A program made the translations under genes and the position numbers. The notes below the pieces were generated by a model that saw only the letters and a program-made list of their open reading frames with translations, had not been told where the DNA came from and made no database searches. Of a DNA stretch of 64,000 nucleotides, positions 1,580 to 32,572 are shown piece by piece; the first letter of the stretch is position 1, and each line of letters opens with the position of its first letter. The stretch is from a virus. The stretch spans positions 8,451 through 72,450 of the IMG/VR virus record IMGVR_UViG_3300027917_000041; one strand, given 5' to 3'.

Positions 1580-1585
1580 GTCTGC

Positions 1586-1614
1586 ATTATACCATATTTT
1601 TAGTTATTTGTCAA
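1586..1614 (-). promoter_or_regulatory. sigma70/sigmaA-type promoter
   Basis: TTGACA-N17-TATAAT with extended TG (CTTGACAAATAACTAAAAATATGGTATAAT). Confidence 0.85.
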
Positions 1615-1859: not shown

Positions 1860-1861
1860 TA

Positions 1862-2164
1862 TTACTCCTGCGGAAACAAATCGTTTACCGCTGTCATCAC
1901 TTCGAGTAATCGTACAAAATCAGCCCAACTAAGCGTCATATCCTCAGAACCAACCACTAGATTGAAAGTCAATTCATGGCTATACCTCTCCACCAGCCCA
2001 AACTCGTCCATGTTGTCATTTTTCTCATAGGCTAATACTCGAACATGATCCTTTTGAATTAGTAATACACCTTTATGTGTCATTTTTTCCACTATCTTTA
2101 CTCCTATCAATAGATTTCCAAGGTTTCTTACGTCTATTATACAGTAATTCTTGGGTATTGTCAA
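1862..2164 (-). CDS. Hypothetical protein
   Basis: ORF track. Confidence 0.5.
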   Translation of the reverse strand: MTIPKNYCIIDVRNLGNLLIGVKIVEKMTHKGVLLIQKDHVRVLAYEKNDNMDEFGLVERYSHELTFNLVVGSEDMTLSWADFVRLLEVMTAVNDLFPQE

Positions 2165-2294
2165 CCAATGTTAGCTCCCCACCCGGAATTCGGACATATG
2201 TCTTTTGACATAGATCACACCAAAGAAAGGGTACTCCACCTTCGGGTTTGTAAGTCATACAACCTTTACATGTAGGACATTTTTTAGTAATCAT
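2073..2294 (-). CDS. Small zinc-finger protein
   Basis: MITKKCPTCKGC...WCDLCQK; CxxC...CxxC; start inferred at ATG 2294. Confidence 0.5.
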   Translation of the reverse strand: MITKKCPTCKGCMTYKPEGGVPFLWCDLCQKTYVRIPGGELTLVDNTQELLYNRRKKPWKSIDRSKDSGKNDT

Positions 2295-2452
2295 GACAAT
2301 CAGGATAGGTTTCATCGGGTGGAGTTTCCCCCACCCTTTGTATGAAACCATTTCTATATAAGAAATACTCTGCAATATTTATTGAGAACCAAGTTTTGCA
2401 AATTAAAAACCCCGCAATTAAACTTGCAATCGCTAAAATAATAACTTGAGTA

Positions 2453-3211
2453 TTATCCATTTAGCTTTCTCCTACCAAAGTTAGCCGCAAATGCTAGGAA
2501 TGTAAGTACAATTCCCAATACAGCAAACTGCATTAGCCCAAAGCCTTCGTCAAAGAAACCAGTTTTAGGTAACTCTTGTGGAGGCGTTGGAGTTGGCTTT
2601 TTCTTCTCTGGTGGGTTTGTAGGTGTCTCCGATGGCTCATTTGTCTGTGTTGGTGTCGTAGTAGGAGAGTCTGTCGGAGCTGGTGTCTCCGTAACCTCGG
2701 GCGTGTTTGTAGGTTTAGGAGTTGGTGTCCAAGTTTCCTCGGGATTTTCAGTAGGAGTGGGTGTCTCCGATGGTTCATTTGTTGGTGTTGGTGTTGGTGG
2801 AACTGGTGTTTCTGTAGGAGTTTCCGTTGGAACTTCTGTAGGAGTTTCCGTTGGAACTTCTGTAGCTGTTGGCGTAATCGGTGTAGCTGTTGGTGTGACA
2901 CCTAGTGGCTTAAACTTAGCCTCCAAATGTGAAATCTGCTGACAGGTAGGGCTAGGGTATCCAGTCAAACTTACAGACGCTTTTGTTCTAGCCCCATTAA
3001 AGTTAGCAGTGTAGCAACCATCTGTACCACTTTCAGTAAAGCCAAAACAACCTTGTCCAGCTTTTACCCATATCTTTTGTATTGTGTAGCCATCTGGGGC
3101 TAATGCTGGATTGCCTACATGCTCACCACCGCAGTGACTAGCTTCAGCTTCACCAAATGCCACCCCAAGAAACGCTATTACTAGTAAACTTGCTATTAAT
3201 AGTTTCTTCAT
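2453..3211 (-). CDS. Secreted Pro/Thr-rich surface protein with LPXTG sortase signal
   Basis: N-terminal signal peptide (MKKLLIASLLVIAFLGVAFGEAEA), small Cys-containing domain, about 110-aa PT/TE repeat stalk, LPKTG, hydrophobic TM, basic tail RRK. Confidence 0.85.
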   Translation of the reverse strand: MKKLLIASLLVIAFLGVAFGEAEASHCGGEHVGNPALAPDGYTIQKIWVKAGQGCFGFTESGTDGCYTANFNGARTKASVSLTGYPSPTCQQISHLEAKFKPLGVTPTATPITPTATEVPTETPTEVPTETPTETPVPPTPTPTNEPSETPTPTENPEETWTPTPKPTNTPEVTETPAPTDSPTTTPTQTNEPSETPTNPPEKKKPTPTPPQELPKTGFFDEGFGLMQFAVLGIVLTFLAFAANFGRRKLNG

Positions 3212-15000: not shown

Positions 15001-15413
15001 ACGATCTCTACTTGATCTTTGAATTCACGAGACTTAACCCGGCTATACAATTTTCTAGCTCGTTTGTTGAGCTTTTTTAGTATCGGGTTGTTAACCTTCC
15101 ATCCATTTACCGTCTGTTTCACGGTTAGTTTACTATCACAGTAGATAGTCCACTTTGTATTTCTGTGGTGTTTCATGTAAAAATTGACATACTCTAGGAG
15201 TTTAATCATAGATTCATACTCTGCTTGGTTGCTAGTCTTTGAGTCTAAGTTAAAAGTTTCTGACCTAATCAATTCATCCTTTCCAAATACTGCAAAACTT
15301 CCATAAGCATCAGAGTGTGTCTTATTATTACAGCCACCATCTACGTAAGCTGTGATGTTTCTCAAATTTTCTGCCTCCTCGGACTGAGGAGCACTTCTAA
15401 AACTAATATCCAT
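14958..15413 (-). CDS. rnhA: Ribonuclease HI
   Basis: YVDGG, TSNQAEY, CDSKL, WIPR catalytic motifs. Confidence 0.88.
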   Translation of the reverse strand: MDISFRSAPQSEEAENLRNITAYVDGGCNNKTHSDAYGSFAVFGKDELIRSETFNLDSKTSNQAEYESMIKLLEYVNFYMKHHRNTKWTIYCDSKLTVKQTVNGWKVNNPILKKLNKRARKLYSRVKSREFKDQVEIVWIPRAGIVEVLGH

Positions 15414-15419
15414 GGCTTA

Positions 15420-15448
15420 ATTATACCATGGATTTAGTGTTTTGTCAA
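15420..15448 (-). promoter_or_regulatory. sigma70-type promoter for replication genes
   Basis: CTTGACAAAACACTAAATCCATGGTATAAT; ATG 6 nt after -10. Confidence 0.85.
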
Positions 15449-15459
15449 GTACTAATTTT

Positions 15460-15533
15460 AGGCATACCCAGCTGGACTTGAACCAGCACCGAGGGGTTTG
15501 GAGTCCCTAATGCTACCATTACACCACGGATAT
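15460..15533 (-). tRNA. tRNA-Trp(CCA), 3' end CCT
   Basis: Cloverleaf read manually; anticodon loop CTCCAAA. Confidence 0.9.
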
Positions 15534-15537
15534 GTAT

Positions 15538-15612
15538 AGGAGCGTGTGACAGGAGTCGCACCTGCACCGTATGGTTGGAAGCCACCCATGCTACTGTTAA
15601 CACCACACACGC
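15538..15612 (-). tRNA. tRNA-Gly(TCC), 3' CCT, non-canonical A18/G55
   Basis: Loop CTTCCAA; U73; T-loop TGCGACT. Confidence 0.88.
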
Positions 15613-15616
15613 ACTT

Positions 15617-15707
15617 AGGCGGAGAATACAGGGATCGAACCTGTACATCGGAGTTACCGACATCACCGTTTTCAAGACGGATAAGCACGCCAGCCTTGCG
15701 ACTCTCC
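15617..15707 (-). tRNA. tRNA-Ser(TGA), 3' CCT
   Basis: Loop CTTGAAA, long variable arm, G73. Confidence 0.88.
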
Positions 15708-15709
15708 GT

Positions 15710-15797
15710 AGGCGGAAGGTAGAGGGATCGAACCTCTGCATCCGGTTGGATGGTTATGGTTTAGCAAACCAGCGCATTACCACTCTGCCAACCTTCC
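15710..15797 (-). tRNA. tRNA-Ser(GCT), 3' CCT
   Basis: Loop TTGCTAA, long variable arm. Confidence 0.9.
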
Positions 15798-15800
15798 AAT

Positions 15801-15887
15801 AGGTCGCTATGGCAGGATTCGAACCTGCATGGACACATGCCCACCATGGTTTGAGCATGGCGTGTATACCAATTCCACCACACAGCG
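15801..15887 (-). tRNA. tRNA-Leu(CAA), 3' CCT
   Basis: Loop CTCAAAC, long variable arm. Confidence 0.9.
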
Positions 15888-15889
15888 AT

Positions 15890-15966
15890 AGGTGCTGAAC
15901 CCTAGACTCGAACTAGGAATCTTCCGCGTATCAGACGGATGCGTTAACCAGTTACGCTAGTCCAGC
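15890..15966 (-). tRNA. tRNA-Ile(GAT), 3' CCT
   Basis: Loop CTGATAC. Confidence 0.9.
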
Positions 15967-15969
15967 ATT

Positions 15970-16044
15970 AGGTGACTCTACAGGGGATTGAACCCTGATT
16001 CTCAGCTTGAGGGGCTGATGTCCTATCCATTAGACGATAGAGCC
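15970..16044 (-). tRNA. tRNA-Glu(CTC), 3' CCT
   Basis: Loop CCCTCAA. Confidence 0.9.
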
Positions 16045-16048
16045 ATAT

Positions 16049-16133
16049 AGGTGCTCTAGAGAGGAGTCGAACCTCTACGCCCGAAGGCACTTGGGTTTAA
16101 GTCAAGCGTGTCTGCCAATTCCACCACAAGAGC
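16049..16133 (-). tRNA. tRNA-Leu(TAA), 3' CCT
   Basis: Loop CTTAAAC, long variable arm. Confidence 0.9.
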
Positions 16134-16138
16134 ATTTT

Positions 16139-16325
16139 AGACCACCCGTAGGCAGGATTCTGTTCTATGCTATCATTTATCTTTGCACCAACCCGACTAT
16201 TATAGCGTAGCTCACCCGCTAAGTCTGTTTGGCTTGCTACCTAGGTAGTGCAAACGGCTTATGCCTCCTACCGTGAGCTAAGTAGTCCTGACCTTCCTCT
16301 GTTTCCAGCGATAGCTCGATGGTCT
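16139..16325 (-). ncRNA. rnpB: Minimal RNase P RNA (catalytic domain intact, S-domain nearly absent, no P18)
   Basis: CR-I GAGGAAGGUCAGGAC and CR-V AACAGAAUCCUGCCUA form P4 with the bulged U; P1 AGACCAUC/GGUGGUCU; P2 GCUAUCG/UGAUAGC; P3 CUG-GAAA-CAG; P5 CUAC/GUAG; P6 pseudoknot UAGCUCAC/GUGAGCUA; P15 GCCA/UGGU with GGGU; P16 GACU/AGUC; P17 UAGC/GCUA; CR-IV AGAUAAAUG. Confidence 0.92.
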
Positions 16326-16326
16326 T

Positions 16327-16401
16327 AGGAGTCCTAGGTGGGAGTCGAACCCACTCTACAGCGTTTTGCAGACGCTTTCCTAGCCATTCGGAATCTAGGA
16401 C
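16327..16401 (-). tRNA. tRNA-Cys(GCA), 3' CCT
   Basis: Loop CTGCAAA, U73. Confidence 0.9.
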
Positions 16402-16405
16402 ATTT

Positions 16406-16479
16406 AGGCTGAGGGTACTGGATTTGCACCAATGATACTTGGTTCAGAGCCAAGGGGTTTACTGTTAGCCTAACCCTCA
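16406..16479 (-). tRNA. tRNA-Gln(CTG), 3' CCT, non-canonical A18/G55
   Basis: Loop CTCTGAA; U1-A72; T-loop TGCAAAT. Confidence 0.87.
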
Positions 16480-16483
16480 GTAT

Positions 16484-16560
16484 AGGCGGTTACTACGAGA
16501 TTCGAACTCGCATATTCTTCCTTGACAGGGAAGCCCATTAACCAATTATGGTAAGCAACC
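16484..16560 (-). tRNA. tRNA-Asp(GTC), 3' CCT
   Basis: Loop CTGTCAA, G73. Confidence 0.9.
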
Positions 16561-16564
16561 ATTA

Positions 16565-16641
16565 TGGAGCTGAATACTGGATTCGAACCAGTACTTCTTG
16601 GTTACAAAGCAAGCGTGCTTGACCATTAACACTAATCCAGC
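16565..16641 (-). tRNA. tRNA-Thr(TGT), the only gene with encoded CCA
   Basis: Loop TTTGTAA; ends TCAGC-T-CCA. Confidence 0.9.
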
Positions 16642-16645
16642 TTGT

Positions 16646-16720
16646 AGGTGACATCTGACGGATTCGAACCGACACTTCCCTGATTGAAAGTCAGGTGTCC
16701 TTCCAGTAGACGAAGATGCC
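16646..16720 (-). tRNA. tRNA-Glu(TTC), 3' CCT
   Basis: Loop CTTTCAA. Confidence 0.9.
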
Positions 16721-16770
16721 ATACCGCAGGGCTTTCGCCCTGCACCCTGCCACGAATGGTCAGGGGTGAT

Positions 16771-16847
16771 AGGTGCAGGATACAGGACTCGAACCTGTGT
16801 TCTCTTTTTTGTAAGAAAAGCGATTTCACCAGCTAATCTAATCCTGC
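16771..16847 (-). tRNA. tRNA-Val(TAC), 3' CCT
   Basis: Loop CTTACAA. Confidence 0.88.
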
Positions 16848-16901
16848 AAATTGGTCTTGTTTTTGTAGCTTCTGGTACAAGACCGTAAACCTAGCTACCG
16901 C

Positions 16902-16977
16902 AGGTGGACAAGACGAGATTCGAACTCGTATTACTTCTGTGCAAGAGAAGTGTGTTCCCAATTGTCACTACTCGCCC
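16902..16977 (-). tRNA. tRNA-Ala(TGC), 3' CCT
   Basis: Loop CTTGCAC; G3:U70 identity pair. Confidence 0.9.
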
Positions 16978-16978
16978 A

Positions 16979-17055
16979 AGGTACTCCGTGGAGGATTTGA
17001 ACCTCCATCTCGTAGGTTAAGAGCCTAGTGGGTTAGCCGTTAACCCCAACGGAGT
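16979..17055 (-). tRNA. tRNA-Lys(CTT), 3' CCT
   Basis: Loop CTCTTAA. Confidence 0.9.
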
Positions 17056-17144
17056 ATGTACATCCAGTCTACGTTAATCGGAACCTCGTCCGATGCTTAT
17101 ATGCGTGTCCAGCGTAGACCAGTGAGAGCCGCTAAGCTCCCTAT

Positions 17145-17228
17145 AGGTGCGCCCGGAGAGAGTCGAACTCCCACAGCTTATAGCGGGTGGTTTACAGCCA
17201 CTTGGACTCGCCATTGTCCAGCAGACGC
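17145..17228 (-). tRNA. tRNA-Tyr(GTA), 3' CCT
   Basis: Loop CTGTAAA, long variable arm. Confidence 0.9.
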
Positions 17229-17231
17229 ATT

Positions 17232-17307
17232 AGGTAGCGGAGGACGGAGTTGAACCGACTTGGGACAGTTTATGAGACTGCCGAGTTTACCGAAACTCTA
17301 CTCCGCA
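17232..17307 (-). tRNA. tRNA-Met(CAT), initiator-like acceptor end, 3' CCT
   Basis: Loop CTCATAA; U1xU72 mismatch; A11-U24. Confidence 0.85.
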
Positions 17308-17311
17308 ATAT

Positions 17312-17390
17312 AGGTACTGGCACTTGGATTCGAACCAAGACCTTACAGTTTAAAAGACTGATGTGCTAGACCGTTAAACACCATACCAGT
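17312..17390 (-). tRNA. tRNA-Lys(TTT), 3' CCT
   Basis: Loop CTTTTAA. Confidence 0.9.
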
Positions 17391-17396
17391 ATATTT

Positions 17397-17470
17397 AGGT
17401 GTAGACCCCCGGAGTCGAACCGGGCTTGTCCGGGCTTCAACCGGATGCATAACCACTCTGCCAAGTCCAC
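17397..17470 (-). tRNA. tRNA-Phe(GAA), 3' CCT
   Basis: Loop TTGAAGC. Confidence 0.88.
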
Positions 17471-17474
17471 ATTT

Positions 17475-17550
17475 AGGTACTCGCACTAGGATTCGAACCT
17501 AGACTCAACCGTATATAAGACGGACGTGTTCACCATTACACTATGCGAGT
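17475..17550 (-). tRNA. tRNA-Ile(TAT), 3' CCT
   Basis: Stem CCGT/ACGG, loop CTTATAT, A73. Confidence 0.85.
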
Positions 17551-17554
17551 ATGT

Positions 17555-17629
17555 AGGCTGAGGGTGAAGGGGTCGAACCTCCATTTCAGGCTTCAAAGAC
17601 CTTAGTCTTTACCATTAGACGAACCCTCA
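17555..17629 (-). tRNA. tRNA-Gln(TTG), 3' CCT
   Basis: Loop CTTTGAA; U1-A72. Confidence 0.9.
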
Positions 17630-17637
17630 ATATTGAC

Positions 17638-17666
17638 ATTATAACACAAAAATTGATATTTGTCAA
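17638..17666 (-). promoter_or_regulatory. Internal promoter of the tRNA/RNase P array
   Basis: CTTGACAAATATCAATTTTTGTGTTATAAT; upstream of 22 tRNAs and the RNase P RNA. Confidence 0.85.
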
Positions 17667-17678
17667 GTACCAATTTCT

Positions 17679-17753
17679 AGGAGCATCTAGCAGGGGTCGA
17701 ACCTGCACTACTTGGTTCGTAGCCAAGTGGTCTATCCATTAGCCTATAGATGC
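17679..17753 (-). tRNA. tRNA-Arg(ACG), 3' CCT
   Basis: Loop CTACGAA; A20. Confidence 0.9.
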
Positions 17754-17756
17754 ATT

Positions 17757-17831
17757 AGGCGCAACCAAGAGGACTCGAACCTCTTCCATGGGCTTAGAAC
17801 ACCCTTATGCGATCCACTACACCATGGTTGC
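17757..17831 (-). tRNA. tRNA-Arg(TCT), 3' CCT
   Basis: Loop GTTCTAA; A20. Confidence 0.87.
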
Positions 17832-17969
17832 AATTTTATGTAAGATACGCCAAAATAGGTTATCTCGTTTCCAGATAGAAGTATGATCTTCTCTAAATCC
17901 CCATAGAAAATACCAGTCTATCTTAATACCACCTTTCTTGCGTTTGCTTACCTTACCAATTTTTGTCAT

Positions 17970-18044
17970 AGGCACTCAGGGGCGGGGTCGAACCACCGTC
18001 ACCACGGTTAACAGCCGTGTGCATTACCATTATGCTACCCGAGT
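17970..18044 (-). tRNA. tRNA-Asn(GTT), 3' CCT
   Basis: Loop CTGTTAA, G73. Confidence 0.9.
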
Positions 18045-18048
18045 GTAT

Positions 18049-18125
18049 AGGGGTAATCGGTGAGTCTCGAACTCACTATAACTGTGTTCACAGCACAGCG
18101 TCGCACCAGTTTGACTTCGATCACC
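18049..18125 (-). tRNA. tRNA-His(GTG) with encoded G-1:C73, 3' CCT
   Basis: Loop CTGTGAA; 8-bp acceptor. Confidence 0.9.
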
Positions 18126-18129
18126 ATAT

Positions 18130-18214
18130 AGGTGCTTCTCGTGGGAGTCGAACCCACATGAGTCTCCTCACTAGTTTCTAAGACTAGAGCGTATACCAAT
18201 TCCGCCAGAGAAGC
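18130..18214 (-). tRNA. tRNA-Leu(TAG), 3' CCT
   Basis: Loop CTTAGAA, long variable arm. Confidence 0.9.
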
Positions 18215-18216
18215 AT

Positions 18217-18290
18217 AGGTCAAGGTGAGAGGAATCGAACCTCTTCCGCAGAGTCCCAAACTCCGTGTGCGGCCATTACACCACACCCTG
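18217..18290 (-). tRNA. tRNA-Pro(TGG), 3' CCT
   Basis: Loop TTTGGGA; C1-G72. Confidence 0.9.
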
Positions 18291-18452
18291 TAGATATCCA
18301 CCTTTGTCATATTTAGCAAGGCAAAAGGTTTGATGAGTGGAAAATCCTTGTTGGCTGTAAGCCTCTTGTATATATTTATATATACAAGCTATTAATTAAT
18401 TATTTAATTAACTATTTAATTAATATATTAACTCTGTAGTTAATTGCTCTTA

Positions 18453-18481
18453 ATTATACCATAAAAAGTTGCATTTGTCAA
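18453..18481 (-). promoter_or_regulatory. Promoter at head of tRNA array
   Basis: CTTGACAAATGCAACTTTTTATGGTATAAT. Confidence 0.85.
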
Positions 18482-22081: not shown

Positions 22082-23056
<975 letters not shown>

Positions 23057-24316
23057 ATGATCAAAACAGAAACTACATGTAGAGTCTGCGGTGGCGAACT
23101 CGTAGACCTGCTTGACTTTGGTGAAATATACCCTAGCGGTTTTGTTAAAAGTCAGGAAGGGCATACAAAAGCCCCGTTGGTATTGGTACAATGTATAAAG
23201 TGTACATTGGTACAACTTAAACATACCGTTAACTTAGATTTGATGTATCGCCAATATTGGTATTCATCTGCTTTAAATAAGTCAATGGTTAGTTCTTTAA
23301 AGAATATCGCTGACGAAACACAAAAACGGGTAGAGTTAGAAGAAGGTGACATTATAATCGACATTGGTTGTAACGATGGCACTTTGTTTCAGTTCTTTCC
23401 GGACGAATGTTTTAAAATAGGTTTCGATCCTGCCCTAAATTTAAAGGATCGAGCAGAGGAAAATTGTGACTTATTTATTAATGATTATTTTCGTAGCGAT
23501 CTGTTGCCTCTTGGAGTGGTTCGTGGAGCGAAGGTCATCACATCAATAGCAATGTTCTATGACCTACCAAAACCAGACGCTTTCGTAAATGAAATTGAAC
23601 AAGTACTTGCAGCTGACGGTATTTGGGTAGTGCAGTTTACGGATTTGCTTTCAATGTTGCAGATAAATGCATTTGATAATATCTGCCACGAACACCTTGA
23701 GTACTACAAGCTAGTAAACCTGCTACAAATATTTGATTACTATGACCTTGATATTTTTGATTTAGAATACAACAATGTCAATGGTGGTAGTTTGCGTGTC
23801 TATGTTTGCCATAAGGGTGCTAAACCAATAAAACCAATCGTTGAAGATATGTTCAACTACGAGAAGGCTTATTTTGAGAAATTCAAAGAGCCTTTCGGTT
23901 CTTTTGTTAGACGCATCAAGCACGCTGAGATTGCATTAAAAGATTACTTAGCCCGTTCAAAAGCAGCTGGAAAGACTACATTTGTTTTGGGTGCGAGTAC
24001 AAAGGGCAACACACTATTACAGGCATGGGGCTTAACCAAAGAAGATTTGCCTTACGCTTTAGAAGTAAACGAAGATAAGTTTGGTTTGCGTACTATCGGA
24101 AGTGATATTCCTATCATTTCAGAAGAAGAAGGTTTAGCGATGCAACCTGACCAATTACTTCTTTTGCCTTGGCACTTCATCACTGGCGTTAAAGCTAACT
24201 TACATGAGTATTTAGAAAATGGTGGTATCATAATAACGCCTCTGCCTAGCTTTACAATACACTATGAGGAGGATGGTTATTCATGGATATTAGAACAAAG
24301 AGCATCGGTTTTCTAA
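23057..24316 (+). CDS. NDP-sugar C-methyltransferase (Zn-binding N-terminus, SAM domain, C-methyltransferase C-domain)
   Basis: CRVC...CIKC.LVQL, DIGCNDG, FDNICHEH, NGGS.R, GASTKGNTLL, LLPWHF. Confidence 0.92.
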   Translation: MIKTETTCRVCGGELVDLLDFGEIYPSGFVKSQEGHTKAPLVLVQCIKCTLVQLKHTVNLDLMYRQYWYSSALNKSMVSSLKNIADETQKRVELEEGDIIIDIGCNDGTLFQFFPDECFKIGFDPALNLKDRAEENCDLFINDYFRSDLLPLGVVRGAKVITSIAMFYDLPKPDAFVNEIEQVLAADGIWVVQFTDLLSMLQINAFDNICHEHLEYYKLVNLLQIFDYYDLDIFDLEYNNVNGGSLRVYVCHKGAKPIKPIVEDMFNYEKAYFEKFKEPFGSFVRRIKHAEIALKDYLARSKAAGKTTFVLGASTKGNTLLQAWGLTKEDLPYALEVNEDKFGLRTIGSDIPIISEEEGLAMQPDQLLLLPWHFITGVKANLHEYLENGGIIITPLPSFTIHYEEDGYSWILEQRASVF

Positions 24317-24549
24317 TCGACCAACTTATTACTACCAATCTTCGGTGCTGGTTTGCACAAGAAGATATTATGAATCCCAATTTATCAGAAGAAAAACGTT
24401 TAGATGCAGCTATTAGAGCACAGGCACAGAACGCTATTCGTTCGCAACTAATAAAGGCTATTGATGGAGTGTTGGGAGAAGGTAGTATTACGATGGGTGG
24501 GGATAAGACTTACTACACCTATCACGATAAAGACAAAGGAGGAAGTTAA
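24283..24549 (+). CDS. Small helical protein of the sugar island
   Basis: SIG.LID.L...N...W..QE...N..RS.LI..ID. Confidence 0.55.
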   Translation: MDIRTKSIGFLIDQLITTNLRCWFAQEDIMNPNLSEEKRLDAAIRAQAQNAIRSQLIKAIDGVLGEGSITMGGDKTYYTYHDKDKGGS

Positions 24550-25199
24550 TGTCATATACTTATTCAAAGTGCTTAACACTAGAAGATTTTAATACATTTT
24601 CTGAGCACCAATTAATTGAACCTTTTATGCAAAGGATACACCCGAACTATCGGTACGAACACCCTATGCGTAAATGGGAATACGGATTAGCCCTTAAGTT
24701 ATTATTGGAAATAGGGGCTGAAAAGATTTTGGATGTGGGCGGTGGCGGTTCATTACTTGCACCAGTTTTATCTCATTATGGGATTCATGTTACACAGATT
24801 GACCCCGACCCAAGTGGTGAATCTACAGTTGCAAAACAAAATGAAATTTTAGGACAGTCTAACGAATTTATTTGTCAAGACTTCCTAGAGTATAGGGGAA
24901 GAACGAAATACGACGCTGTAATTTGTATGAGCACCATTGAGCATATAAAGGATGAAGATGAAAAGACCTTTTTCCTAAAACTGCTTAAACCTGCACCTTT
25001 TCTATTTTTAAGTACTGACTACTCTCCAAAGGGAAAGCCTTTCAGTGTAGCTCATGAACGCACATATAATTCAGCAAGCTTAAAGCGTCTTGCTAAATTG
25101 GCAAAGGGTTGGAGTTTCTATGGTGGTGTGGACTACTCCTATAGACAACCACTTGTATATGAGTATACATTTGCATCACTGGCTCTAGCTAAGAAATGA
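24549..25199 (+). CDS. Class I SAM-dependent methyltransferase
   Basis: R.WEY, ILDVGGGGS, YDAVICMSTIEHI. Confidence 0.85.
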   Translation: MSYTYSKCLTLEDFNTFSEHQLIEPFMQRIHPNYRYEHPMRKWEYGLALKLLLEIGAEKILDVGGGGSLLAPVLSHYGIHVTQIDPDPSGESTVAKQNEILGQSNEFICQDFLEYRGRTKYDAVICMSTIEHIKDEDEKTFFLKLLKPAPFLFLSTDYSPKGKPFSVAHERTYNSASLKRLAKLAKGWSFYGGVDYSYRQPLVYEYTFASLALAKK

Positions 25200-25843
25200 C
25201 CTATAGTATTTATGAAACACTAAGAGGGCGGTTTTTACTAACTGATGATAATGATTTAGTATCCGATCAAATCAAAGCCGACCAATTTTGGGAGCACGAG
25301 CTACAACCTACTTTTGACTTAATTTCACAAGATATGATTGTTGTAGAAGTTGGAGCATACGTAGGGGATCATACTGTAGATTTGGCTAAACGTTGTAAGT
25401 ATATTCATGCTTTTGAGGGGCATAAACCAACATATTATTTACTTGGTGCTAACTTACTTTTGCACAACTGTATGAACGTTACGACTTATAATCTATGTAT
25501 TGGAAATGGTAATAAAGTCGCTGGTAGAATACCCGATCCCGGCAATATAGCAGCTTATATTTACGAGCCATCAAATGATGGTGCTATTATAGCTCACCGT
25601 TTAGATGATATTCTTGTTGGTTTAAACGGATTAGACTTTCTAAAGGTAGATGTAGAGGGCATGGATTTAGAGGTAATGATGGGTGCTAAACAACTTATTG
25701 GGGATTTCAAACCTAGAATTGTCTATGAGTTTAGTTGGCCTCTCTCTAAGCAAAAGCACGTAGAGTACGAAGATTTTTTGAAACAGTTCGGCTATACCAC
25801 TACCAAGCTGGAGGGACTTTGGAATTGGCACGCTCACATATAA
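25196..25843 (+). CDS. FkbM-family methyltransferase
   Basis: VEVGAYVG, AFE, LDFLKVDVEGMD..V..GA. Confidence 0.9.
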   Translation: MTYSIYETLRGRFLLTDDNDLVSDQIKADQFWEHELQPTFDLISQDMIVVEVGAYVGDHTVDLAKRCKYIHAFEGHKPTYYLLGANLLLHNCMNVTTYNLCIGNGNKVAGRIPDPGNIAAYIYEPSNDGAIIAHRLDDILVGLNGLDFLKVDVEGMDLEVMMGAKQLIGDFKPRIVYEFSWPLSKQKHVEYEDFLKQFGYTTTKLEGLWNWHAHI

Positions 25844-26559
25844 AAAGCAATGACGTAGGCGATATTGACAACTTTGAATATGTAGTAATGGGAATGGCTA
25901 AAAGTGGAACAACATCTATCCAAGATTCTCTTAATATGTCTGGTCTACGATGCATTAAATTTCATTCAGATTACACACTACTTAGGGTTTTTCACAACCC
26001 ATCAATAAATGCGGAATGCTTAATAAAACATGCTCATAACGTATTTGTACCCTATCGTAATCCAATAAATAGAAAAGTTAGTCAATATTATTTCTATAAT
26101 AAGGCAACTGGAAAATCTGTGGCGCAACAAATAAATGAAATACGCTCTTATTGTTTGGGCGACTATTCATTATTTAGTAAAGACACTCAAACAGAAATAG
26201 ATGAAAATCAATTCTTTGCTGGCTTAAAGATTGCTACAGGCATTGATATTTTAAAGTATGGTTTTGTAAAAGAAAGGGGCTATGGTATTATATCTGAATA
26301 TGATATGTCATTGGTACATTTTTCAATAGAAAATATCAATAGTTTAGGTTCATTTTTGCGTGTATACCTAACACCCAATTTTAAGGTTATGACAAGTAGG
26401 GTATCTAAGAAATTACCCGAAAGAGTACAGGTAAGGAATTCATTGAACTTTAGCGACACTGAATTGGATACTATCTTTGGTAGTGAATATTGTCGTTACT
26501 TTTATAGTGAGCAACAAATAGAGGAGTTTAAGGCATGGGAAAAAAGACTGATGGCGTAG
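25819..26559 (+). CDS. Sulfotransferase-fold protein
   Basis: 5'-PSB-like GMAKSGTTS; 3'-PB-like RNPINRKVSQY. Confidence 0.7.
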   Translation: MELARSHIKSNDVGDIDNFEYVVMGMAKSGTTSIQDSLNMSGLRCIKFHSDYTLLRVFHNPSINAECLIKHAHNVFVPYRNPINRKVSQYYFYNKATGKSVAQQINEIRSYCLGDYSLFSKDTQTEIDENQFFAGLKIATGIDILKYGFVKERGYGIISEYDMSLVHFSIENINSLGSFLRVYLTPNFKVMTSRVSKKLPERVQVRNSLNFSDTELDTIFGSEYCRYFYSEQQIEEFKAWEKRLMA

Positions 26560-27437
26560 AGAATGTATATTTTTACAATCACTATGGGAATGGAGATATT
26601 TTTGAATCATTAGAATTTGTAAAAGAATGGATGGAAATTTTAGGAGAACGCAATTATTTTTATGCCCACGGTAAAAATCCTAAAATTGTGCGTGAACTTT
26701 CAAATGTAACTTCTATGAATGTTACGGAAGAAATGCACGCCATGAGAGCAATTCACTTTAATAACAACACAAGCTCCGTGTTTATTAATACATGGTTAGG
26801 TAGGGATGGACGTTACGTACTTCCCGGTATTGGTGTAGTTGTAGAGCAACTTTGGAGGATGCACAACCACATGCTTAATAGTATTGGGTTGCGCCCTTTA
26901 ATCAAACCAATTATAGAATATGTGCCTAATCTAAATTACAATTTATATCCTGATTGCGAACATGTAGATTTTTGGTTACGTTCAGAAGCTAAGCACCGTA
27001 AAATTTGGCTAATAGATAATGGAAATGTACAATCCAATCAAGCCAAAAACTTTGATTTCAATCCAATCATCAGCAAAGTAGCTCAAGAAGTACCAAATGA
27101 TTTTTTTGTTACAACTCAGCGTCATGGTATTATGAATACTAATGTTTGGGTTTTGGATGAAATTATACAAAGTAAAGATGGTTTTGATTTACCTGAACTA
27201 TCTTATCTAAGTAGATTTTCTGACGGTAGTATTGGTAGAAATAGTGGGCCGCACGTTTATACTCAAGTTAGAGACAATTGGCTAAATCCTGATTTTAAGT
27301 TTCTATCTTTTACTTATCAACGACAAGCAGCTTACTTTATACTCGACCAACCAGTACAAGCTAAAAAGTATTGGTCGCCATATCTAAACGATAAACAAAT
27401 AGTAGAAAATATATTAGAATTTGTGAGGGAAGTTTAA
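26535..27437 (+). CDS. Putative GT-B glycosyltransferase
   Basis: N-terminal G.GD motif and C-terminal IGRNSGP as in GT9-like enzymes; located in the sugar island. Confidence 0.55.
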   Translation: MGKKTDGVENVYFYNHYGNGDIFESLEFVKEWMEILGERNYFYAHGKNPKIVRELSNVTSMNVTEEMHAMRAIHFNNNTSSVFINTWLGRDGRYVLPGIGVVVEQLWRMHNHMLNSIGLRPLIKPIIEYVPNLNYNLYPDCEHVDFWLRSEAKHRKIWLIDNGNVQSNQAKNFDFNPIISKVAQEVPNDFFVTTQRHGIMNTNVWVLDEIIQSKDGFDLPELSYLSRFSDGSIGRNSGPHVYTQVRDNWLNPDFKFLSFTYQRQAAYFILDQPVQAKKYWSPYLNDKQIVENILEFVREV

Positions 27438-28351
27438 TGAGTAAAACACTTATTGGCATGGTAACGTTCGGAAATGTTGATTTCAGTAAACTTACTGTAG
27501 AATCAATTAGAAAAACAACAGAGAATGATATTAGTTTTTTCGTGGTTGTGGGCAAGCCCAATGACTTTGAAACAATCGATTGGTTGAACAAAGATAATAT
27601 TGCCTACACAGAACACGAAACAAATATCGGCTTTCCTGCGGGTCTAAATGATATTTATGACTTTGCTTGGAAATCACATAATTTCGACAACTTGATTATA
27701 TGTGGAAATGATATTGTAGCCTATCCCTATGCTATTGATGCGCTTATTAATAAAGCAGATACATCCGACTGGCAATGGATTAGTTCTTCTCAATTTGATG
27801 TGCGTGCTTTGGTTGATATGTATCCACAGACTAGAGATCAATTTAGCCCCGATGCTAAACTCAGGTTTCATAAGTTTGGTGAAGTAGCTCCTTGGGAAAT
27901 TCATACGGATTGGCAGAATAAAGAAGAACGACTAGAACCCAATGTTATTAAAGATGTGCATAATTTGTGTTTGTACAAACCTTCTGTAATGGAGGCTATC
28001 GGATACATTGATGTTAATTTTTATCCTGCCTATTATTCGGACAATGACTACGCAAGACGTGGGGTTAATGCTGGATTAAAAACCTGTGCATTGGGCAATT
28101 CACAATATTTCCACTTTTGGAGTAGGACTATACACCAAGGTTCAGGGGGTTCTAACAATAGGTACTTTGATAATAACAGACGTTTTTATATCAGCAAATG
28201 GGGTGGAGATTTTGCTAAAGAAAAGTGGACAATACCGTTTAACGGTGGTACATACCCCCTAACTAAAAATATAACGCTAGAAGGTAGTTTGAAGATCGAT
28301 AGTAGAGATCAAGAGGAGGCTATTACCCGATTCTGGCGTGGAGGTAGATAA
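27437..28351 (+). CDS. GT2-family glycosyltransferase
   Basis: NIGFPAGLN, NDI, IGYID.NF.PAYYSDNDY..R, HFWSRT. Confidence 0.88.
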   Translation: MSKTLIGMVTFGNVDFSKLTVESIRKTTENDISFFVVVGKPNDFETIDWLNKDNIAYTEHETNIGFPAGLNDIYDFAWKSHNFDNLIICGNDIVAYPYAIDALINKADTSDWQWISSSQFDVRALVDMYPQTRDQFSPDAKLRFHKFGEVAPWEIHTDWQNKEERLEPNVIKDVHNLCLYKPSVMEAIGYIDVNFYPAYYSDNDYARRGVNAGLKTCALGNSQYFHFWSRTIHQGSGGSNNRYFDNNRRFYISKWGGDFAKEKWTIPFNGGTYPLTKNITLEGSLKIDSRDQEEAITRFWRGGR

Positions 28352-29905
28352 TTGGCATTAGTCGAAAAAGTTAATCAAGTAGATGATTTATACTTCTATG
28401 AGATTATGCGTAATCCAGTACTGTGTGGGGAATTTATTCAAAATTACGACAAAGCTGAGTGGGAAGAATCATTTGAATTTACAATCTATCAGAAAGAAAT
28501 TCTATGCGACTTCAATACGCACGTTTCAGTTTGTACAGCCCGAGCTACAGGAAAGACCGTAAGTTTTGTAAATCTATTGCTGTGGGTATTGGTATTTAAT
28601 TTATTCCCCGGCGATTATATAGTTTACTCAGTACCTAACAAGGTACACCTTGAACCTGTGTTTACGGGTCTAGTGAGGATGTTACGTGGTAACACCTTCA
28701 TGAAACAGTTTATAGCGTCAGCAAAGGGTATTAACCAATCTACAAATACGGTTACTTTGCTGAATGGAGCGGTACTTTTATGTCGTATCGCTGGTCAGAC
28801 AGGTACAGGTGCTAACGTTATCGGTTTGCACACACCTTTTACATTAGTAGACGAAGGCGGGTATTATCCTTGGGGTACTTGGGTAGAGCAACAACCTACC
28901 ATGAACACTTTCACACCCGGTTTTAGATTGGGTGTAGCAGGAGTGCCGACAGGCTTAAGAGAAAATAATGTTCTGTATCATGCCGATATGGAAAACTCTA
29001 ACTATACAAAGCATCGTTTGTCTGCATATGACAATCCACGGTTTACACAAGAAGATGAAGATCGTGCCGTTGAGCAGTACGGCAGTAAAGAAAGCGATGA
29101 CTTTATACATCTTGTTCTTGGACAACACGGAGCACCAATCTTTGCCGTGTTCGACAGACAGCTGTTTCAAATAGAGGGTTATCCAGTACACAAGCTGGTA
29201 CTAGATGGTATCAAAATTCAAGGAAACTTAGCAGAATATCAGACCAAATTATCATTTCTTCCTAATCTTGAATATAAGAATGCCAAAGTACTTGTAGGAA
29301 TAGACTTGGGATATACCGATCCAACAGCTATTGTTATTCTGTATGACCGTGGAAATGGAATTTTGAAATTCCATGCTAGAATACAGCTAAACAAGGTAGC
29401 CTATCCAATTCAAGAGAAAATCATAGATTGGGTAGATACTAAATTTAATCCGTCTATAATTGGTCTTGATGTTGGTTCGTCCGGTTTAGCCGTGTCGCAA
29501 ACGCTGTTGGAAGGGGATGCCTATAAACGTAAGAAGTACAAGGATAGACTTATTCCTATAAACTTCTCGTCAATGGTAGTAATCGGTGTAGACTCCGATG
29601 GAGAGGAGCTAAAGCAGAAAACAAAACCGTTCTCTGTTTCTGTATTACAAACCTATTCTAACAATCATAGAATAGTGTATTCTTCAACTGATATGGAGTT
29701 GATTGCCGAACTTGAACGTATGACTTATACTAAAACTGTAACAGGGGATATTGTGTACAAAACAATGACTCCGCAGGGTGGACAAAGAGGGGAAGATCAC
29801 TTTACAGCAGCTATGTTATGTGCAGGAATGGCTTATTATTTAGAAAATGAAAGTTTGGTTCTCAACACCAAAACAAAGAAATTGCTGAAAGCAAGGTGGA
29901 TATAA
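28352..29905 (+). CDS. Terminase large subunit
   Basis: ARATGKT Walker A, LVDE Walker B, RNase H nuclease GIDLG..D, terminal DH..A. Confidence 0.9.
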   Translation: MALVEKVNQVDDLYFYEIMRNPVLCGEFIQNYDKAEWEESFEFTIYQKEILCDFNTHVSVCTARATGKTVSFVNLLLWVLVFNLFPGDYIVYSVPNKVHLEPVFTGLVRMLRGNTFMKQFIASAKGINQSTNTVTLLNGAVLLCRIAGQTGTGANVIGLHTPFTLVDEGGYYPWGTWVEQQPTMNTFTPGFRLGVAGVPTGLRENNVLYHADMENSNYTKHRLSAYDNPRFTQEDEDRAVEQYGSKESDDFIHLVLGQHGAPIFAVFDRQLFQIEGYPVHKLVLDGIKIQGNLAEYQTKLSFLPNLEYKNAKVLVGIDLGYTDPTAIVILYDRGNGILKFHARIQLNKVAYPIQEKIIDWVDTKFNPSIIGLDVGSSGLAVSQTLLEGDAYKRKKYKDRLIPINFSSMVVIGVDSDGEELKQKTKPFSVSVLQTYSNNHRIVYSSTDMELIAELERMTYTKTVTGDIVYKTMTPQGGQRGEDHFTAAMLCAGMAYYLENESLVLNTKTKKLLKARWI

Positions 29906-29906
29906 T

Positions 29907-31406
29907 ATGACAGATGAAATAACAAAACAATCAAAGCTAGCCAAAGCTGCCTTCATGAACACACGAAACAACATTTCAATGCAGAATCCATGGATGGCAG
30001 ACCAAGTAGATAAGCTTGAAATCGTTGATATAGAGGAGTTCAAGAAGATCGTATTTGCTTGTAGATTCTTTTATAAGCGTGATCCTATTGCGTCCACCGT
30101 TATCAACAAGATGATTGATATTGGTATTACCGATATCGATTTTGAGCGTTCTGAATTGAATAATAATGAGGAAAACCTAATTACAGGTATGCTACCTAAG
30201 CTTCTGGACTTTGCTGAGGCTATGGCAATGGAATACCTTATTTCTGGTTTGGTAATTCCAGAAGTAAAGTTCACTACTGTCAGCAAAGCAGAATTAGATG
30301 AAGCCGGGTTCAATATCAAAAAATACTCTGCCCTCACATTACCTACTTCTATGTGGGTACGTGATCCAGCAACCCTGATTGTTAAAAGTCCGGGTCTGTC
30401 AGATAAGCAATCGTATTTTATCAAGATACCCGATAAACTGGTTGACTTCATTACTTCAAAGGGTAGCTATGATAATTTAATGGAAGATAAGGAACTTTAT
30501 CGTTATCTTTTAACAGCCTACCCGCAGTTTGTTGACGCTGTACGTAGAGGACAGCTATTCTTCAAACTGGAAAATCCTACTGTTATTCGTCGTAAGGTAG
30601 TTAGTGACTCGCCCTATCCAATTCCATATCTGTACGCATCAATCGAGGCTATGAAGCACAAGAGAAACATTCGTAGGATGGACTACTCGATTGCATCAAG
30701 GGTTATTTCAGCTATCCAGCTAATTAAACTTGGTAATGACGAGTATCCACTAACAGAAGATGATGAAGAACAATTGCAGGATATCAAAGATCAAATGTAT
30801 TGGCGTAACACCGGAAACATTGACGTTGAACGTATTTTCCAATTATTCTCTAACCACACCCTAGATATAACATGGGTATTTCCTGATACAGAAGCATTGT
30901 TAGATGATACTAAATATAAGGAAGTAAATCGTGATATCTTCTATGGTCTAGGTTTTCCTGCTATCTTAGCTACTGGTGAAACAGAACGTTCATCCGCATC
31001 CGATGCTGAATATGCTATGTTAAGCCCTGTGGAGACTATGGAATCCTACAGACGTAAGATTATCCAAGTTTTGAACAAGGTAGTTGCGGATACGCTAGAA
31101 AATAATGGAATGAAAGGTTCTACTACTTTGAGATTCAAGCCAATTAACCTATCTAGCTTCCGTTACTTTGTAGACGCTATGATTAAGCTATATGAAACTG
31201 GTAACATTTCTAAGGAAACATTTGTTGAACAGTTCGGTATGAATTACCAAGATGAGTTTGAGCGTAGGGAGAGAGAAAAGGAACAATTAGACGCATCTGA
31301 TCTTGAAGAATTTCCTCAGCAACCATTCACAAATCCAGCAGGACGTGATGGCGGTGGTACTGACGGAGATCAGAAAAATAGTGATTCGGACAAGGAAAGT
31401 GCATAA
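29907..31406 (+). CDS. Portal protein
   Basis: Follows TerL; about 500 aa helical; PYP.P motif; acidic tail. Confidence 0.75.
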   Translation: MTDEITKQSKLAKAAFMNTRNNISMQNPWMADQVDKLEIVDIEEFKKIVFACRFFYKRDPIASTVINKMIDIGITDIDFERSELNNNEENLITGMLPKLLDFAEAMAMEYLISGLVIPEVKFTTVSKAELDEAGFNIKKYSALTLPTSMWVRDPATLIVKSPGLSDKQSYFIKIPDKLVDFITSKGSYDNLMEDKELYRYLLTAYPQFVDAVRRGQLFFKLENPTVIRRKVVSDSPYPIPYLYASIEAMKHKRNIRRMDYSIASRVISAIQLIKLGNDEYPLTEDDEEQLQDIKDQMYWRNTGNIDVERIFQLFSNHTLDITWVFPDTEALLDDTKYKEVNRDIFYGLGFPAILATGETERSSASDAEYAMLSPVETMESYRRKIIQVLNKVVADTLENNGMKGSTTLRFKPINLSSFRYFVDAMIKLYETGNISKETFVEQFGMNYQDEFERREREKEQLDASDLEEFPQQPFTNPAGRDGGGTDGDQKNSDSDKESA

Positions 31407-31428
31407 TCTGTTGTTTTTTATATCAATT

Positions 31429-31459
31429 TTGACAAAATTTATCGAAAATGTGGTATAAT
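31429..31459 (+). promoter_or_regulatory. Promoter upstream of head genes
   Basis: TTGACA-N19-TATAAT with extended TGTGG. Confidence 0.6.
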
Positions 31460-31504
31460 TAATAATAGGAGATTACGTCCTTTACCGTATGTCTCTATTT
31501 TGAC

Positions 31505-32572
31505 GTGAGGTACTTTATGACAGAGACTAATATTTTTCTTATCAAGGAAGCGGGTCTAGACGAAAAGGACGCTTTTGCGTCTGTAACTCTTAACCCTACG
31601 TTACGTTGGCTAAAGTTTATCTTGACCGATGACCAGCCAAATGCTAACAAACAAAGAATCCCCCAAGAAGAATTTGATAACCTTATTAAAAGTGGCATTA
31701 ATATGCCTATCAAAATGGCAGCTGGAGACATTGCAGACGGACACGAAAACTCCTTTCCAGTTGGTGTTATTACACACTTAAAGAAGGTTGCTAACAAGAT
31801 TGAGGGATTGGCAGCTCTTTGGTCTAAGGAAAGACCAGAGGACATCGATTTAATTATAAATGAATTTGAATCTGGATCGCCTCCTCAAATTTCTTGGGAA
31901 GTTCCCTACATGGAAGAGGTACTCAGAGAAAATGGAGTAAAAGACTTAATTGGTACAATACTCCGTGCGGCTACGTTGGTTAGACGACCTGCTTTTGAAG
32001 GGAGAACTCCCGTTATTGCGGTCGCAGCTAAAGAAGTAATCGAAGTGACCGAACCAACAGAAACAGATTCTAGTATGGAGGAAAATAATACAATGGAAGA
32101 ACTTGATGTTTTGAAATCTCAGTTGCAGGAAGCCCAAGACCGTATCAAGGAGCTAGAAGGTCAGCTTCAAGAAAAGGATGAAGGTTTTGCAGCTGTTGAG
32201 GAAGAACTAACTAGCCTTCGAGAATTCAAAGCACAGATCGAAAAAGAAGATGCAGAAGCTGAACAGTTGGCTTCGGTTCGTGCTAAGTTCGCTGAGGCTG
32301 GTATTGAAAAACCAGACGAGTATTACATCGAGAATCGTGAACGTTTCCTAAGTATGACTATGGAAGCTGTAGAATTCATGGTTCAGGAAATGACCGCATT
32401 TGCTAAGCTTGCAGAAGCTAGTTTAGAAGATGACGACTCAGAAGGTGATGGAGACGGTGGTGATAAAGAAGGTGAAGGGCTACCTGCTGTTGTAAATACA
32501 GATGATGCCTCAGACCTAGATAATCCTGCCGAAGTCGGGCGACAGCTACGACTATTAAAAGAAAAAAAGTAA
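31505..32572 (+). CDS. Prohead protease/scaffold fusion
   Basis: N-terminal protease-like domain (H, ISWE, PAFEG); C-terminal acidic coiled coil with internal GGAGG-ATG (MEELDV) start. Confidence 0.7.
   Translation: MRYFMTETNIFLIKEAGLDEKDAFASVTLNPTLRWLKFILTDDQPNANKQRIPQEEFDNLIKSGINMPIKMAAGDIADGHENSFPVGVITHLKKVANKIEGLAALWSKERPEDIDLIINEFESGSPPQISWEVPYMEEVLRENGVKDLIGTILRAATLVRRPAFEGRTPVIAVAAKEVIEVTEPTETDSSMEENNTMEELDVLKSQLQEAQDRIKELEGQLQEKDEGFAAVEEELTSLREFKAQIEKEDAEAEQLASVRAKFAEAGIEKPDEYYIENRERFLSMTMEAVEFMVQEMTAFAKLAEASLEDDDSEGDGDGGDKEGEGLPAVVNTDDASDLDNPAEVGRQLRLLKEKK

Follow-up and report, generated by a model that had tools for sequence, protein, structure and literature searches.

CCT in place of CCA at the 3' ends of a phage tRNA array, and its possible relation to host tRNA processing

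In a phage array of 28 tRNA genes, the discriminator base is followed by CC in every gene and by T, not A, in 27 genes. The array lies on the minus strand at 15461–18290 of the window, our term for the whole 64,000-nt stretch analyzed, which comprises bases 8451–72450 of a linear IMG/VR phage record of 72,450 nt (IMGVR_UViG_3300027917_000041; here G000). We interpret its members as CCA-less genes of a C74-C75-U76 type, in which a trailer of zero to two C's and then U is an adaptation to the 3'-end pathway of the host rather than a device of the phage or of the small RNase P-like RNA encoded within the array; we assign this reading a probability of roughly 55%. Adaptation to a host pathway is the most likely explanation because the wider pattern of a discriminator, zero to two C's and a U is also present in chromosomes of some bacteria and in other arrays of phages and mobile elements. 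The striking regularity of the array would therefore be one extreme of a general CCA-less trailer pattern common to phage arrays and some bacterial chromosomes, and the array is a new and unusually uniform case among CCA-less tRNA genes and arrays.

Trailers of the array and their conservation

The 28 tRNA genes were predicted with ARAGORN and each 3' end was anchored on the 7-bp acceptor stem, which has seven of seven pairs in 26 genes and six of seven in two. Positions 74 and 75 are each C in 28 of 28 genes. Position 76 is T in 27 and A in one (tRNA-Thr(TGT), CCAT), and in none is it G or C, such that the templated C74-C75-A76 is missing in all genes except that for Thr. Position 77 is A in 25 genes, T in two, and G in one, while positions 78–81 have mixed bases. 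These ends sort into 25 CCTA, CCTG in Ala, CCTT in Lys-CTT, and CCA in Thr, which reproduces exactly the counts of an earlier note on this DNA. Matches to RF00005 above the 29-bit gathering score were reported for 26 of 28 tRNAs and end at the same discriminators as the acceptor-stem anchoring; of the exceptions, Ser-TGA scores best on the tRNA-Sec model, below threshold, and Cys has no listing. The earlier note also judged the ends too uniform to be drift. The probability of at least 27 T's in 28 genes at position 76 is 4e-13 at the strand T frequency of 0.31 and 1e-7 even at p = 0.5, and the bias toward A at position 77 has P = 7e-11.

The pattern is kept in a sister phage contig, L072, that is collinear with the window and 76% identical in nucleotides over 9.4 kb. 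Array segments of the two are 72–92% identical and share the order of tRNA genes from Pro to Gln-CTG, minus Tyr, where the contig ends, just before the position of the RNase P-like RNA. All 18 tRNAs of L072 end in CCT (16 in CCTA), including Thr, even though the tRNA bodies are 67–100% identical to those of the window. Identity by position is 18 of 18 at 74 and 75, 17 of 18 at 76, 15 of 18 at 77, 11 of 18 at 78, and 10 of 18 at 79. Because CCU is kept in L072 while tRNA bodies and spacers diverge, this comparison indicates that CCU, and A77 to a lesser degree, are under purifying selection.

An unselected origin is accordingly the explanation we regard as most improbable, with only a very small chance of being correct. 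Under it, a founding unit would by chance have ended in CCTA, its duplication would have built the array, and the motif would simply have persisted. The spacers are indeed very short and alike (TATA, TAAT, TAAA) throughout the array. But the 28 genes carry 28 different anticodons, CCT is kept in 18 of 18 genes of L072 despite bodies that are down to 67% identical and positions 78–79 that match in only 10–11 of 18, and the motif recurs in phages lacking a PolA homolog as well as in bacterial chromosomes.

Near-identical copies of the array (15400–18400) are also present in contigs of public DNA runs from marine sediment, seawater, and estuary metagenomes. These copies span six studies besides the probable source, and long identical pieces were confirmed in four runs. 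At 40 of the 45 places where contigs of four DNA runs vary relative to 15400–18400, no variant is at tRNA positions 74–77 and two are at position 78 (15708 and 17553). We considered these variants as evidence on positions 74–77 and found them uninformative, as about 1.7 matches are expected by chance.

The RNase P-like RNA and its relation to CCT

A 195-nt type A RNase P-like RNA (16133–16327, minus strand) that lacks the S domain occupies a 194-nt gap of the array. Its match to RF00010 has a score of 61.5 bits (E = 1e-17; 52.9 bits when searched alone), below the gathering score of 100. The alignment covers model positions 1–367 with the S-domain positions deleted; the specificity domain (P7–P14) is missing, with about 140 model positions replaced by about 31 nt. 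P4 positions are filled by GAGGAAGGUC and ACAGAAUCC, CGGGUU is at the L15 consensus, and P1–P3 and P15 are present. Relative to the class A model, P1–P5, both P4 strands, the GGGU of P15/L15, and the 3' P4 strand ACAGAA all align. The S-domain-less RNase P with GGGU in L15 that was described in the earlier note is thus real, albeit sub-threshold in score. Contigs of two public runs (X4 and X5) differ from the window at eight places in this RNA (16204–16263).

A close comparison is an engineered Escherichia coli RNase P RNA, in which the C domain alone is catalytic but needs P15–17, an element that binds the 3' ACC of the substrate and without which no activity is detectable (passages of PMC5839562). 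Unlike that construct, the phage RNA, a putative ribozyme, is natural, phage-encoded, and 195 nt in size, and its match of 61.5 bits falls short of the gathering score of 100. No description of phage mini RNase P RNAs or of CCU-type arrays was found within the literature searched, and the main text of Ardell and Hou (PMC5143459) contains neither "CCT" nor "partial."

RNAs of 192–297 nt that resemble the mini RNase P of the window are present in five further IMG/VR records (L013, L023, L046, L057, and L088), always beside tRNA arrays. IMG/VR was searched for two P4 strands at a spacing possible only for an S-domain-less RNA, and matches near tRNAs were checked with Rfam. The scan of viral contigs yielded 44 loci, most of which are probably chance matches, and seven have tRNAs nearby. 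The Rfam check covered five of the seven (L013, L023, L046, L028, and L042), leaving out L025 and L033. It identified those of L013, L023, and L046 as RNase P-like RNAs of 192–214 nt within or beside tRNA arrays and rejected L028 and L042. Core columns (P4 strands and L15) are conserved across five phage minis. GGT at L15 is kept in all five aligned minis, including that of L046 although its tRNAs are without CC, hence the pairing of L15 GGU with CC of co-resident tRNAs does not discriminate between models.

A different explanation is one in which CC is kept as a docking handle for the S-domain-less RNase P of the phage and A76 is left out as a maturation checkpoint or as protection against CCA-directed nucleases. 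A mini RNase P with GGGU at L15 is located inside the array, GGT is kept in all five aligned minis, and the C-domain-only ribozyme of E. coli is fully dependent on P15–17 (PMC5839562, in part). Arrays with a mini also have mostly CC at positions 74–75 (28 of 28 tRNAs in the window, 27 of 27 in L057, 24 of 26 in L013, 13 of 14 in L023, and 14 of 20 in L088) versus 467 of 911 in a sample of phage tRNAs unbiased with respect to trailer. Conversely, the arrays of L013 and L023 template full CCA (24 of 26 and 13 of 14 tRNAs, respectively), and C74C75 is in 0 of 11 tRNAs of L046. Moreover, docking accounts for CC and not for T specifically at position 76.

Arrays rich in CCT are similarly found without a mini. 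When IMG/VR was searched for pairs of neighboring tRNAs that each end in CCT, 33 loci were found; six of these are arrays of 10 or more tRNAs in which CCT makes up half or more. L057 has CCT in 23 of 27 tRNAs, with CCA in the other four, and a 203-nt mini RNase P; L088 has CCT in 12 of 20 and a 297-nt mini. In L072 (18 of 18), the contig ends before the ribozyme position. RF00010 was not found in the records of the remaining three, which are L075 (10 of 12; the record is 87% complete), L079 (15 of 24), and L085 (13 of 25), a complete genome with terminal repeats. Whole-record searches for RF00010 also found none in L011 and L058, and recovered five of five known minis as a positive control. 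Because no PolA homolog was found in L079 and L085, these two are probably unrelated lineages.

Since each occurs with and without the other, CCT does not follow the mini RNase P as a rule, an outcome that counts against the model by the standard of the earlier note itself. Its idea of a docking handle is upheld in that CC is templated in all genes and the S-domain-less RNA keeps GGGU at L15, but fails in that CCT does not track with the ribozyme. Its suggestions of a maturation checkpoint and of protection from CCA-directed nucleases find no support in anything computed. Bacterial chromosomal genes use CCT too (see below), and we regard docking, as an explanation for the whole motif, as unlikely. 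A narrower role, in which the ribozyme contributes in a lineage-specific manner to the 100% retention of CC, is somewhat easier to accept but still doubtful.

Other RNA genes were observed in these arrays. Phage tmRNA genes are located within tRNA arrays of five contigs (L075:1926–2243, L079:6508–6874, L057:4503–4753, L013:6–363, and L046:2540–2928), and in four of them the tmRNA trailer copies the local tRNA style (CCT in L075, CTT in L079, CCA in L057, and TAT in L046). The array of L011, a PolA-related phage contig, has 26 tRNAs with C74 in all and C75 in only six. It includes a 74-nt tRNA with anticodon TCA (L011:3039–3112; labeled SeC by ARAGORN) that may be of an opal-suppressor type.

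Trailers in bacteria and phages and a host 3'-end pathway

The earlier note named the same bias in tRNA genes of the host lineage as a refuting observation, and CCT is not specific to phages. A CCT-CCT pair pattern searched against one genome per prokaryotic species matched at least 120 loci. Among the matches listed are chromosomal tRNA pairs, mostly of Chloroflexota metagenome-assembled genomes (MAGs), dense MAG tRNA arrays of Planctomycetota, Actinomycetota, and Anaerolineae with trailers that are nearly all C then T or CC then T, and a Listeria rRNA-tRNA operon in which CCA-less genes end in T, CT, or CCT. In five of these genomes, tRNA genes were sampled by tRNA score regardless of trailer. 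For 34 of 44 tRNA matches in a Caldilineaceae MAG, the trailers are CCT in 17, CCA in seven, CT in seven, C then A or G in two, and T in one; for 20 tRNA genes in a Chloroflexia MAG, they are CT in 11, CCT in five, T in three, and C then A or G in one. CCT can therefore lead among the trailers of ordinary chromosomal tRNA genes, in bacteria that may or may not belong to the host lineage of this phage. The Caldilineaceae MAG also encodes a homolog of RNase Z (268 bits; model positions 1–301 of 302) and has matches to PF01743, the nucleotidyltransferase family.

Among phages, dominance of CCT is rare. A trailer-unbiased scan of phage arrays, based on two adjacent T-arms, covered 119 loci (L212–L330) and 911 tRNAs, with trailers of CCA (449), CT (159), C then A or G (166), T (82), CCT (9), CC then C or G (9), and others (37). 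CCT dominates in none of the 45 arrays that have eight or more tRNAs. C74 is kept in 792 of the 911 tRNA genes, which may reflect a general constraint of RNase P or RNase Z; no report of C74 retention in phage tRNA genes lacking a templated CCA was found within the literature searched. A large class of arrays keeps C74 but has A or G in place of the second C (e.g., 18 of 21 tRNAs in L312, 16 of 24 in L261, and 4 of 7 in L028). Where the host is known, phage arrays copy the host trailer style. CCA is templated in 24 of 26 genes of the T5-like phage chee24 and in 4 of 8 of phage T4, and every tRNA gene of E. coli carries an encoded CCA motif (as stated in a passage of PMC8549757).

Completion of the 3' end is predicted to depend on the host. 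No match to PF01743 was found in the 72-kb G000 record, which is about 80% complete, nor in five further records with CCT-rich arrays (G001–G005), two of which are complete with terminal repeats. A metallo-beta-lactamase RNase was likewise not found among the 102 phage open reading frames scanned. Because A76 is not templated and no phage CCA-adding enzyme was found, we infer that A76 must come from a host enzyme. The earlier note reasoned similarly that A76 must be added after trimming, and its addition after transcription is a sound conclusion given that 27 of 28 genes lack A76 and no PF01743 match was found in the phage. The phage would then be fully dependent on the A76-adding activity of its host, making that enzyme a host factor for infection.

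We suggest the following series of steps. RNase P, in the form of the host enzyme or of the phage RNA joined to the host protein, would cut the 5' ends of polycistronic precursors, and L15 GGU of the phage RNA could pair with N73-C74-C75 as early as on the primary transcript. A host enzyme of the RNase Z/BN type, exonucleases, or both would then take off the short, U/A-rich trailer, with the U as the residue that the 3' enzyme recognizes or removes. Trimming would stop at C75, given that consecutive C's at 74–75 withstand cleavage and trimming in published systems, which would leave only A76 for the host CCA-adding enzyme to add. In such a pathway, CC would double as a trimming stop and RNase P docking site, and CCU would be the longest piece of CCA that can be templated with a U still among the first three nucleotides of the trailer. 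The same rule would explain the series of U, CU, and CCU across genomes.

Known enzymes provide precedents for several of these steps. In Firmicutes such as Bacillus subtilis, transcripts of CCA-less tRNA genes are processed by RNase Z, which a downstream uracil activates (Pellegrini et al. 2003, 2012, as related in parts of PMC10100781 and PMC7479834). In every CCA-less precursor of B. subtilis, a U is located no more than 2 nt past the discriminator and boosts RNase Z activity about 200-fold; the exonuclease activity of the enzyme trims back afterwards (passages of PMC10100781). C's right after the discriminator suppress RNase Z, RNase Z enzymes cut CCA-containing precursors just past CCA, and RNase BN/Z of E. 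coli trims the ends off tRNA-CA, tRNA-CU, and tRNA-CCU, the latter two being classical RNase BN substrates (passages of PMC7479834, in part citing Asha 1983). For human ELAC2, the first two C's are an antideterminant, the third position is irrelevant, and a UCU-to-CCU mutation of the trailer blocks processing (a passage of PMC11649783).

Like CCA-less genes of Firmicutes, those of the window are without a templated CCA, have a U near the discriminator, and would require a cellular CCA-adding enzyme. RNase P RNA of Firmicutes is of type B. Unlike in Firmicutes, that of the window is of type A. Unlike the Listeria operon, in which CC-U is in 3 of 22 tRNAs (L141), the window has CC-U in 27 of 28 genes, with U as the third trailer nucleotide. 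Phage T4 has a comparable cluster of tRNA genes, whose 3' ends are only partly templated and need two host enzymes, RNase BN (RNase Z) and tRNA nucleotidyltransferase. Four of the eight T4 genes are without CCA, with Pro ending in CTG and Gln in CGC, both of which keep C74. Unlike the window, T4 is mixed (four CCA and four other) with no CCT, and its host templates CCA in all genes. T4 is not known to carry an RNase P RNA. The array is also like the tRNA array units on phages, plasmids, and chromosomes, for example of Mycobacterium, that are dense and have 20–40 tRNA genes for most amino acids (PMC5966550). MAG arrays (L100, L114, L173, L106, L152, and others) share with the window trailers of C or CC and then T; they are mostly C-T, whereas the window is almost exclusively CC-T and has an embedded mini RNase P RNA.

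Two further explanations also place completion of the 3' end in the host. In the first, exonucleases alone process the array and U76 has no positive role; RNase T stalls at C. Host 3' exonucleases would stall at CC through an effect of C like that on RNase T, A would be added, and T would be merely the commonest base other than A in AT-rich spacers. Consistent with this, E. coli RNase BN/Z strips terminal residues from tRNA-CU and tRNA-CCU (PMC7479834, in part) and CC-initiated trailers are poor substrates for the endonuclease activity of RNase Z (passages of PMC7479834 and PMC11649783). However, base composition does not readily account for 27 T's with no G or C at position 76 next to mixed positions 78–81 (P = 1e-7 even at p(T) = 0.5), and even in GC-rich bacterial arrays the C's are followed by T (CTG, CTC, CCTG, and CCTC). 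We consider processing by exonucleases alone to be rather improbable.

Some bacteria split the synthesis of CCA between CC-adding and A-adding enzymes. If the host does so, phage tRNAs that template CC would need only the A-adding one. No nucleotidyltransferase was found in the phage, and there are two PF01743 matches in each of five genomes with CT- or CCT-style trailers (four Chloroflexota MAGs and one Sericytochromatia MAG). These pairs could each consist of a CCA-adding enzyme and an unrelated family member, and one of the matches in G009 is a fragment of 30 bits. No split is needed, as tRNA-CC is also completed by an ordinary CCA-adding enzyme, and neither U76 nor A77 is explained. We assign a split of enzymes a low likelihood.

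Several observations weigh against an adaptation of the trailer to the host 3'-end pathway, the reading that we favor. U76 is the third nucleotide past the discriminator in 27 of 28 genes and may lie outside the published range, which is worded as "no more than 2 nt" (a passage of PMC10100781), and trailers that start with CC or CCA are poorly cleaved by RNase Z of B. subtilis and of wheat (a passage of PMC7479834). A cut by RNase Z at or after CC would be an assumption for the host of this phage, and exonucleases alone could suffice. A CCU style of the host itself is presumed, and the bacterial genomes examined were chosen for having at least one CCT-CCT pair, such that they show existence and give no frequency. 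The near-invariant A77 (25 of 28) is left unexplained. The 166 of 911 tRNAs in the unbiased sample with C74 followed by A or G are covered neither by a rule based on uracil nor by templating of CCA. Lastly, no run holding the array stretch is on record as RNA.

Host adaptation and docking could also act together. In the lineage of the window, L072, and L057, the trailer may be tuned for two enzymes, with C74C75 for docking of the S-domain-less RNase P before CCA is added and U76 triggering a host RNase Z-type enzyme. We hold this as a tentative possibility with the odds against it. If correct, CC-U would be the only three-nucleotide solution to suit a minimal ribozyme as well as the 3' pathway of the host, and more broadly, trailer style would be a heritable signature of the processing machinery of the host. 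Trailer style (CCA, U, CU, CCU, or CA) may help to assign hosts of uncultured phages. The wider trailer pattern and its possible use in host prediction are more useful products than the finding of CCT itself.

Organization of the array and other features of the phage

The genes of the array, all on the minus strand, are given here from the upstream end with coordinates, discriminator (position 73), and the bases that follow C75. First are tRNA-Pro(TGG) (18218–18290; A73, TATG), tRNA-Leu(TAG) (18131–18214; A73, TATA), tRNA-His(GTG) with an encoded G-1 (18050–18124; C73, TATA), and tRNA-Asn(GTT) (17971–18044; G73, TATG), which is next to a gap of 139 nt. Past this gap are tRNA-Arg(TCT) (17758–17831; G73, TAAT) and tRNA-Arg(ACG) (17680–17753; T73, TAGA), the latter followed by a 50-nt gap with a predicted promoter. 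A run of six follows, consisting of tRNA-Gln(TTG) (17556–17629; G73, TACA), tRNA-Ile(TAT) (17476–17550; A73, TAAA), tRNA-Phe(GAA) (17398–17470; A73, TAAA), tRNA-Lys(TTT) (17313–17390; A73, TATA), tRNA-Met(CAT) (17233–17307; A73, TAAT), and tRNA-Tyr(GTA) (17146–17228; A73, TATA), and ends at a gap of 90 nt. tRNA-Lys(CTT) (16980–17055; A73, TT) is so close to tRNA-Ala(TGC) (16903–16977; A73, TGCG) that the latter begins 2 nt past C75 of the former. A gap of 55 nt separates Ala from tRNA-Val(TAC) (16772–16847; A73, TATC), and one of 51 nt separates Val from tRNA-Glu(TTC) (16647–16720; A73, TACA).

The sole gene with a templated CCA, tRNA-Thr(TGT) (16565–16641), has T73 and then CCA and TAAT, and its ortholog in L072 has CCT. 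It is followed by tRNA-Asp(GTC) (16485–16560; G73, TATA), tRNA-Gln(CTG) (16407–16479; G73, TAAA), and tRNA-Cys(GCA) (16328–16401; T73, TAAG), whose trailer continues directly into the RNase P RNA. On the other side of that RNA are tRNA-Leu(TAA) (16050–16133; A73, TATA), tRNA-Glu(CTC) (15971–16044; A73, TAAT), tRNA-Ile(GAT) (15891–15966; A73, TATC), tRNA-Leu(CAA) (15802–15887; A73, TATT), tRNA-Ser(GCT) (15711–15797; G73, TACG), tRNA-Ser(TGA) (15618–15707; G73, TAAG), tRNA-Gly(TCC) (15539–15612; T73, TATA), and the last gene of the array, tRNA-Trp(CCA) (15461–15533; G73, TAAA).

Of the 27 intergenic gaps, 20 are 2–7 nt past C75 (1–6 nt past T76), in agreement with the short spacers of 1–6 nt that the earlier note called usual; the other seven are 50–194 nt. 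By eye, GC-rich inverted repeats are present in the gaps at 16721–16771 (51 nt), 16848–16902 (55 nt), 17056–17145 (90 nt), and 17832–17970 (139 nt). A search of these four longer gaps with Rfam found nothing significant. The inverted repeats could be small RNAs or processing elements.

Three perfect matches (12 of 12 positions) to a sigma-70-type promoter, each TTGACA-17-TATAAT with TG before the −10, were identified on the minus strand. One is upstream of the array (18453–18481), and a second is within it, upstream of tRNA-Gln(TTG) (17638–17666). These two are predicted from their sequences to serve the tRNA array. The third (15420–15448) is upstream of the genes for RNase H and PolA.

The record also has genes for ribonucleotide reductase, DnaB, RecA, a family A DNA polymerase, RNase H, a tape-measure protein, and a GH25 lysozyme. 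In searches for a close cultured relative, 50,697 phage records compared with the array by blastn gave only short tRNA matches, and the top matches in a tblastn search with PolA were just 27–31% identical. The host of the phage could not be inferred because neither search found such a relative. The gene for the large subunit of ribonucleotide reductase (L001:471–3080, equal to G000 bases 471–3080, upstream of the window) contains an intein with an HNH endonuclease domain, as indicated by matches to Pfam PF14890 and PF13392 inside PF02867. On the plus strand of the window, a sugar-modification block (22085–36427) encodes a GDP-mannose 4,6-dehydratase, a C-methyltransferase, several further methyltransferases, and a GT4-like glycosyltransferase.

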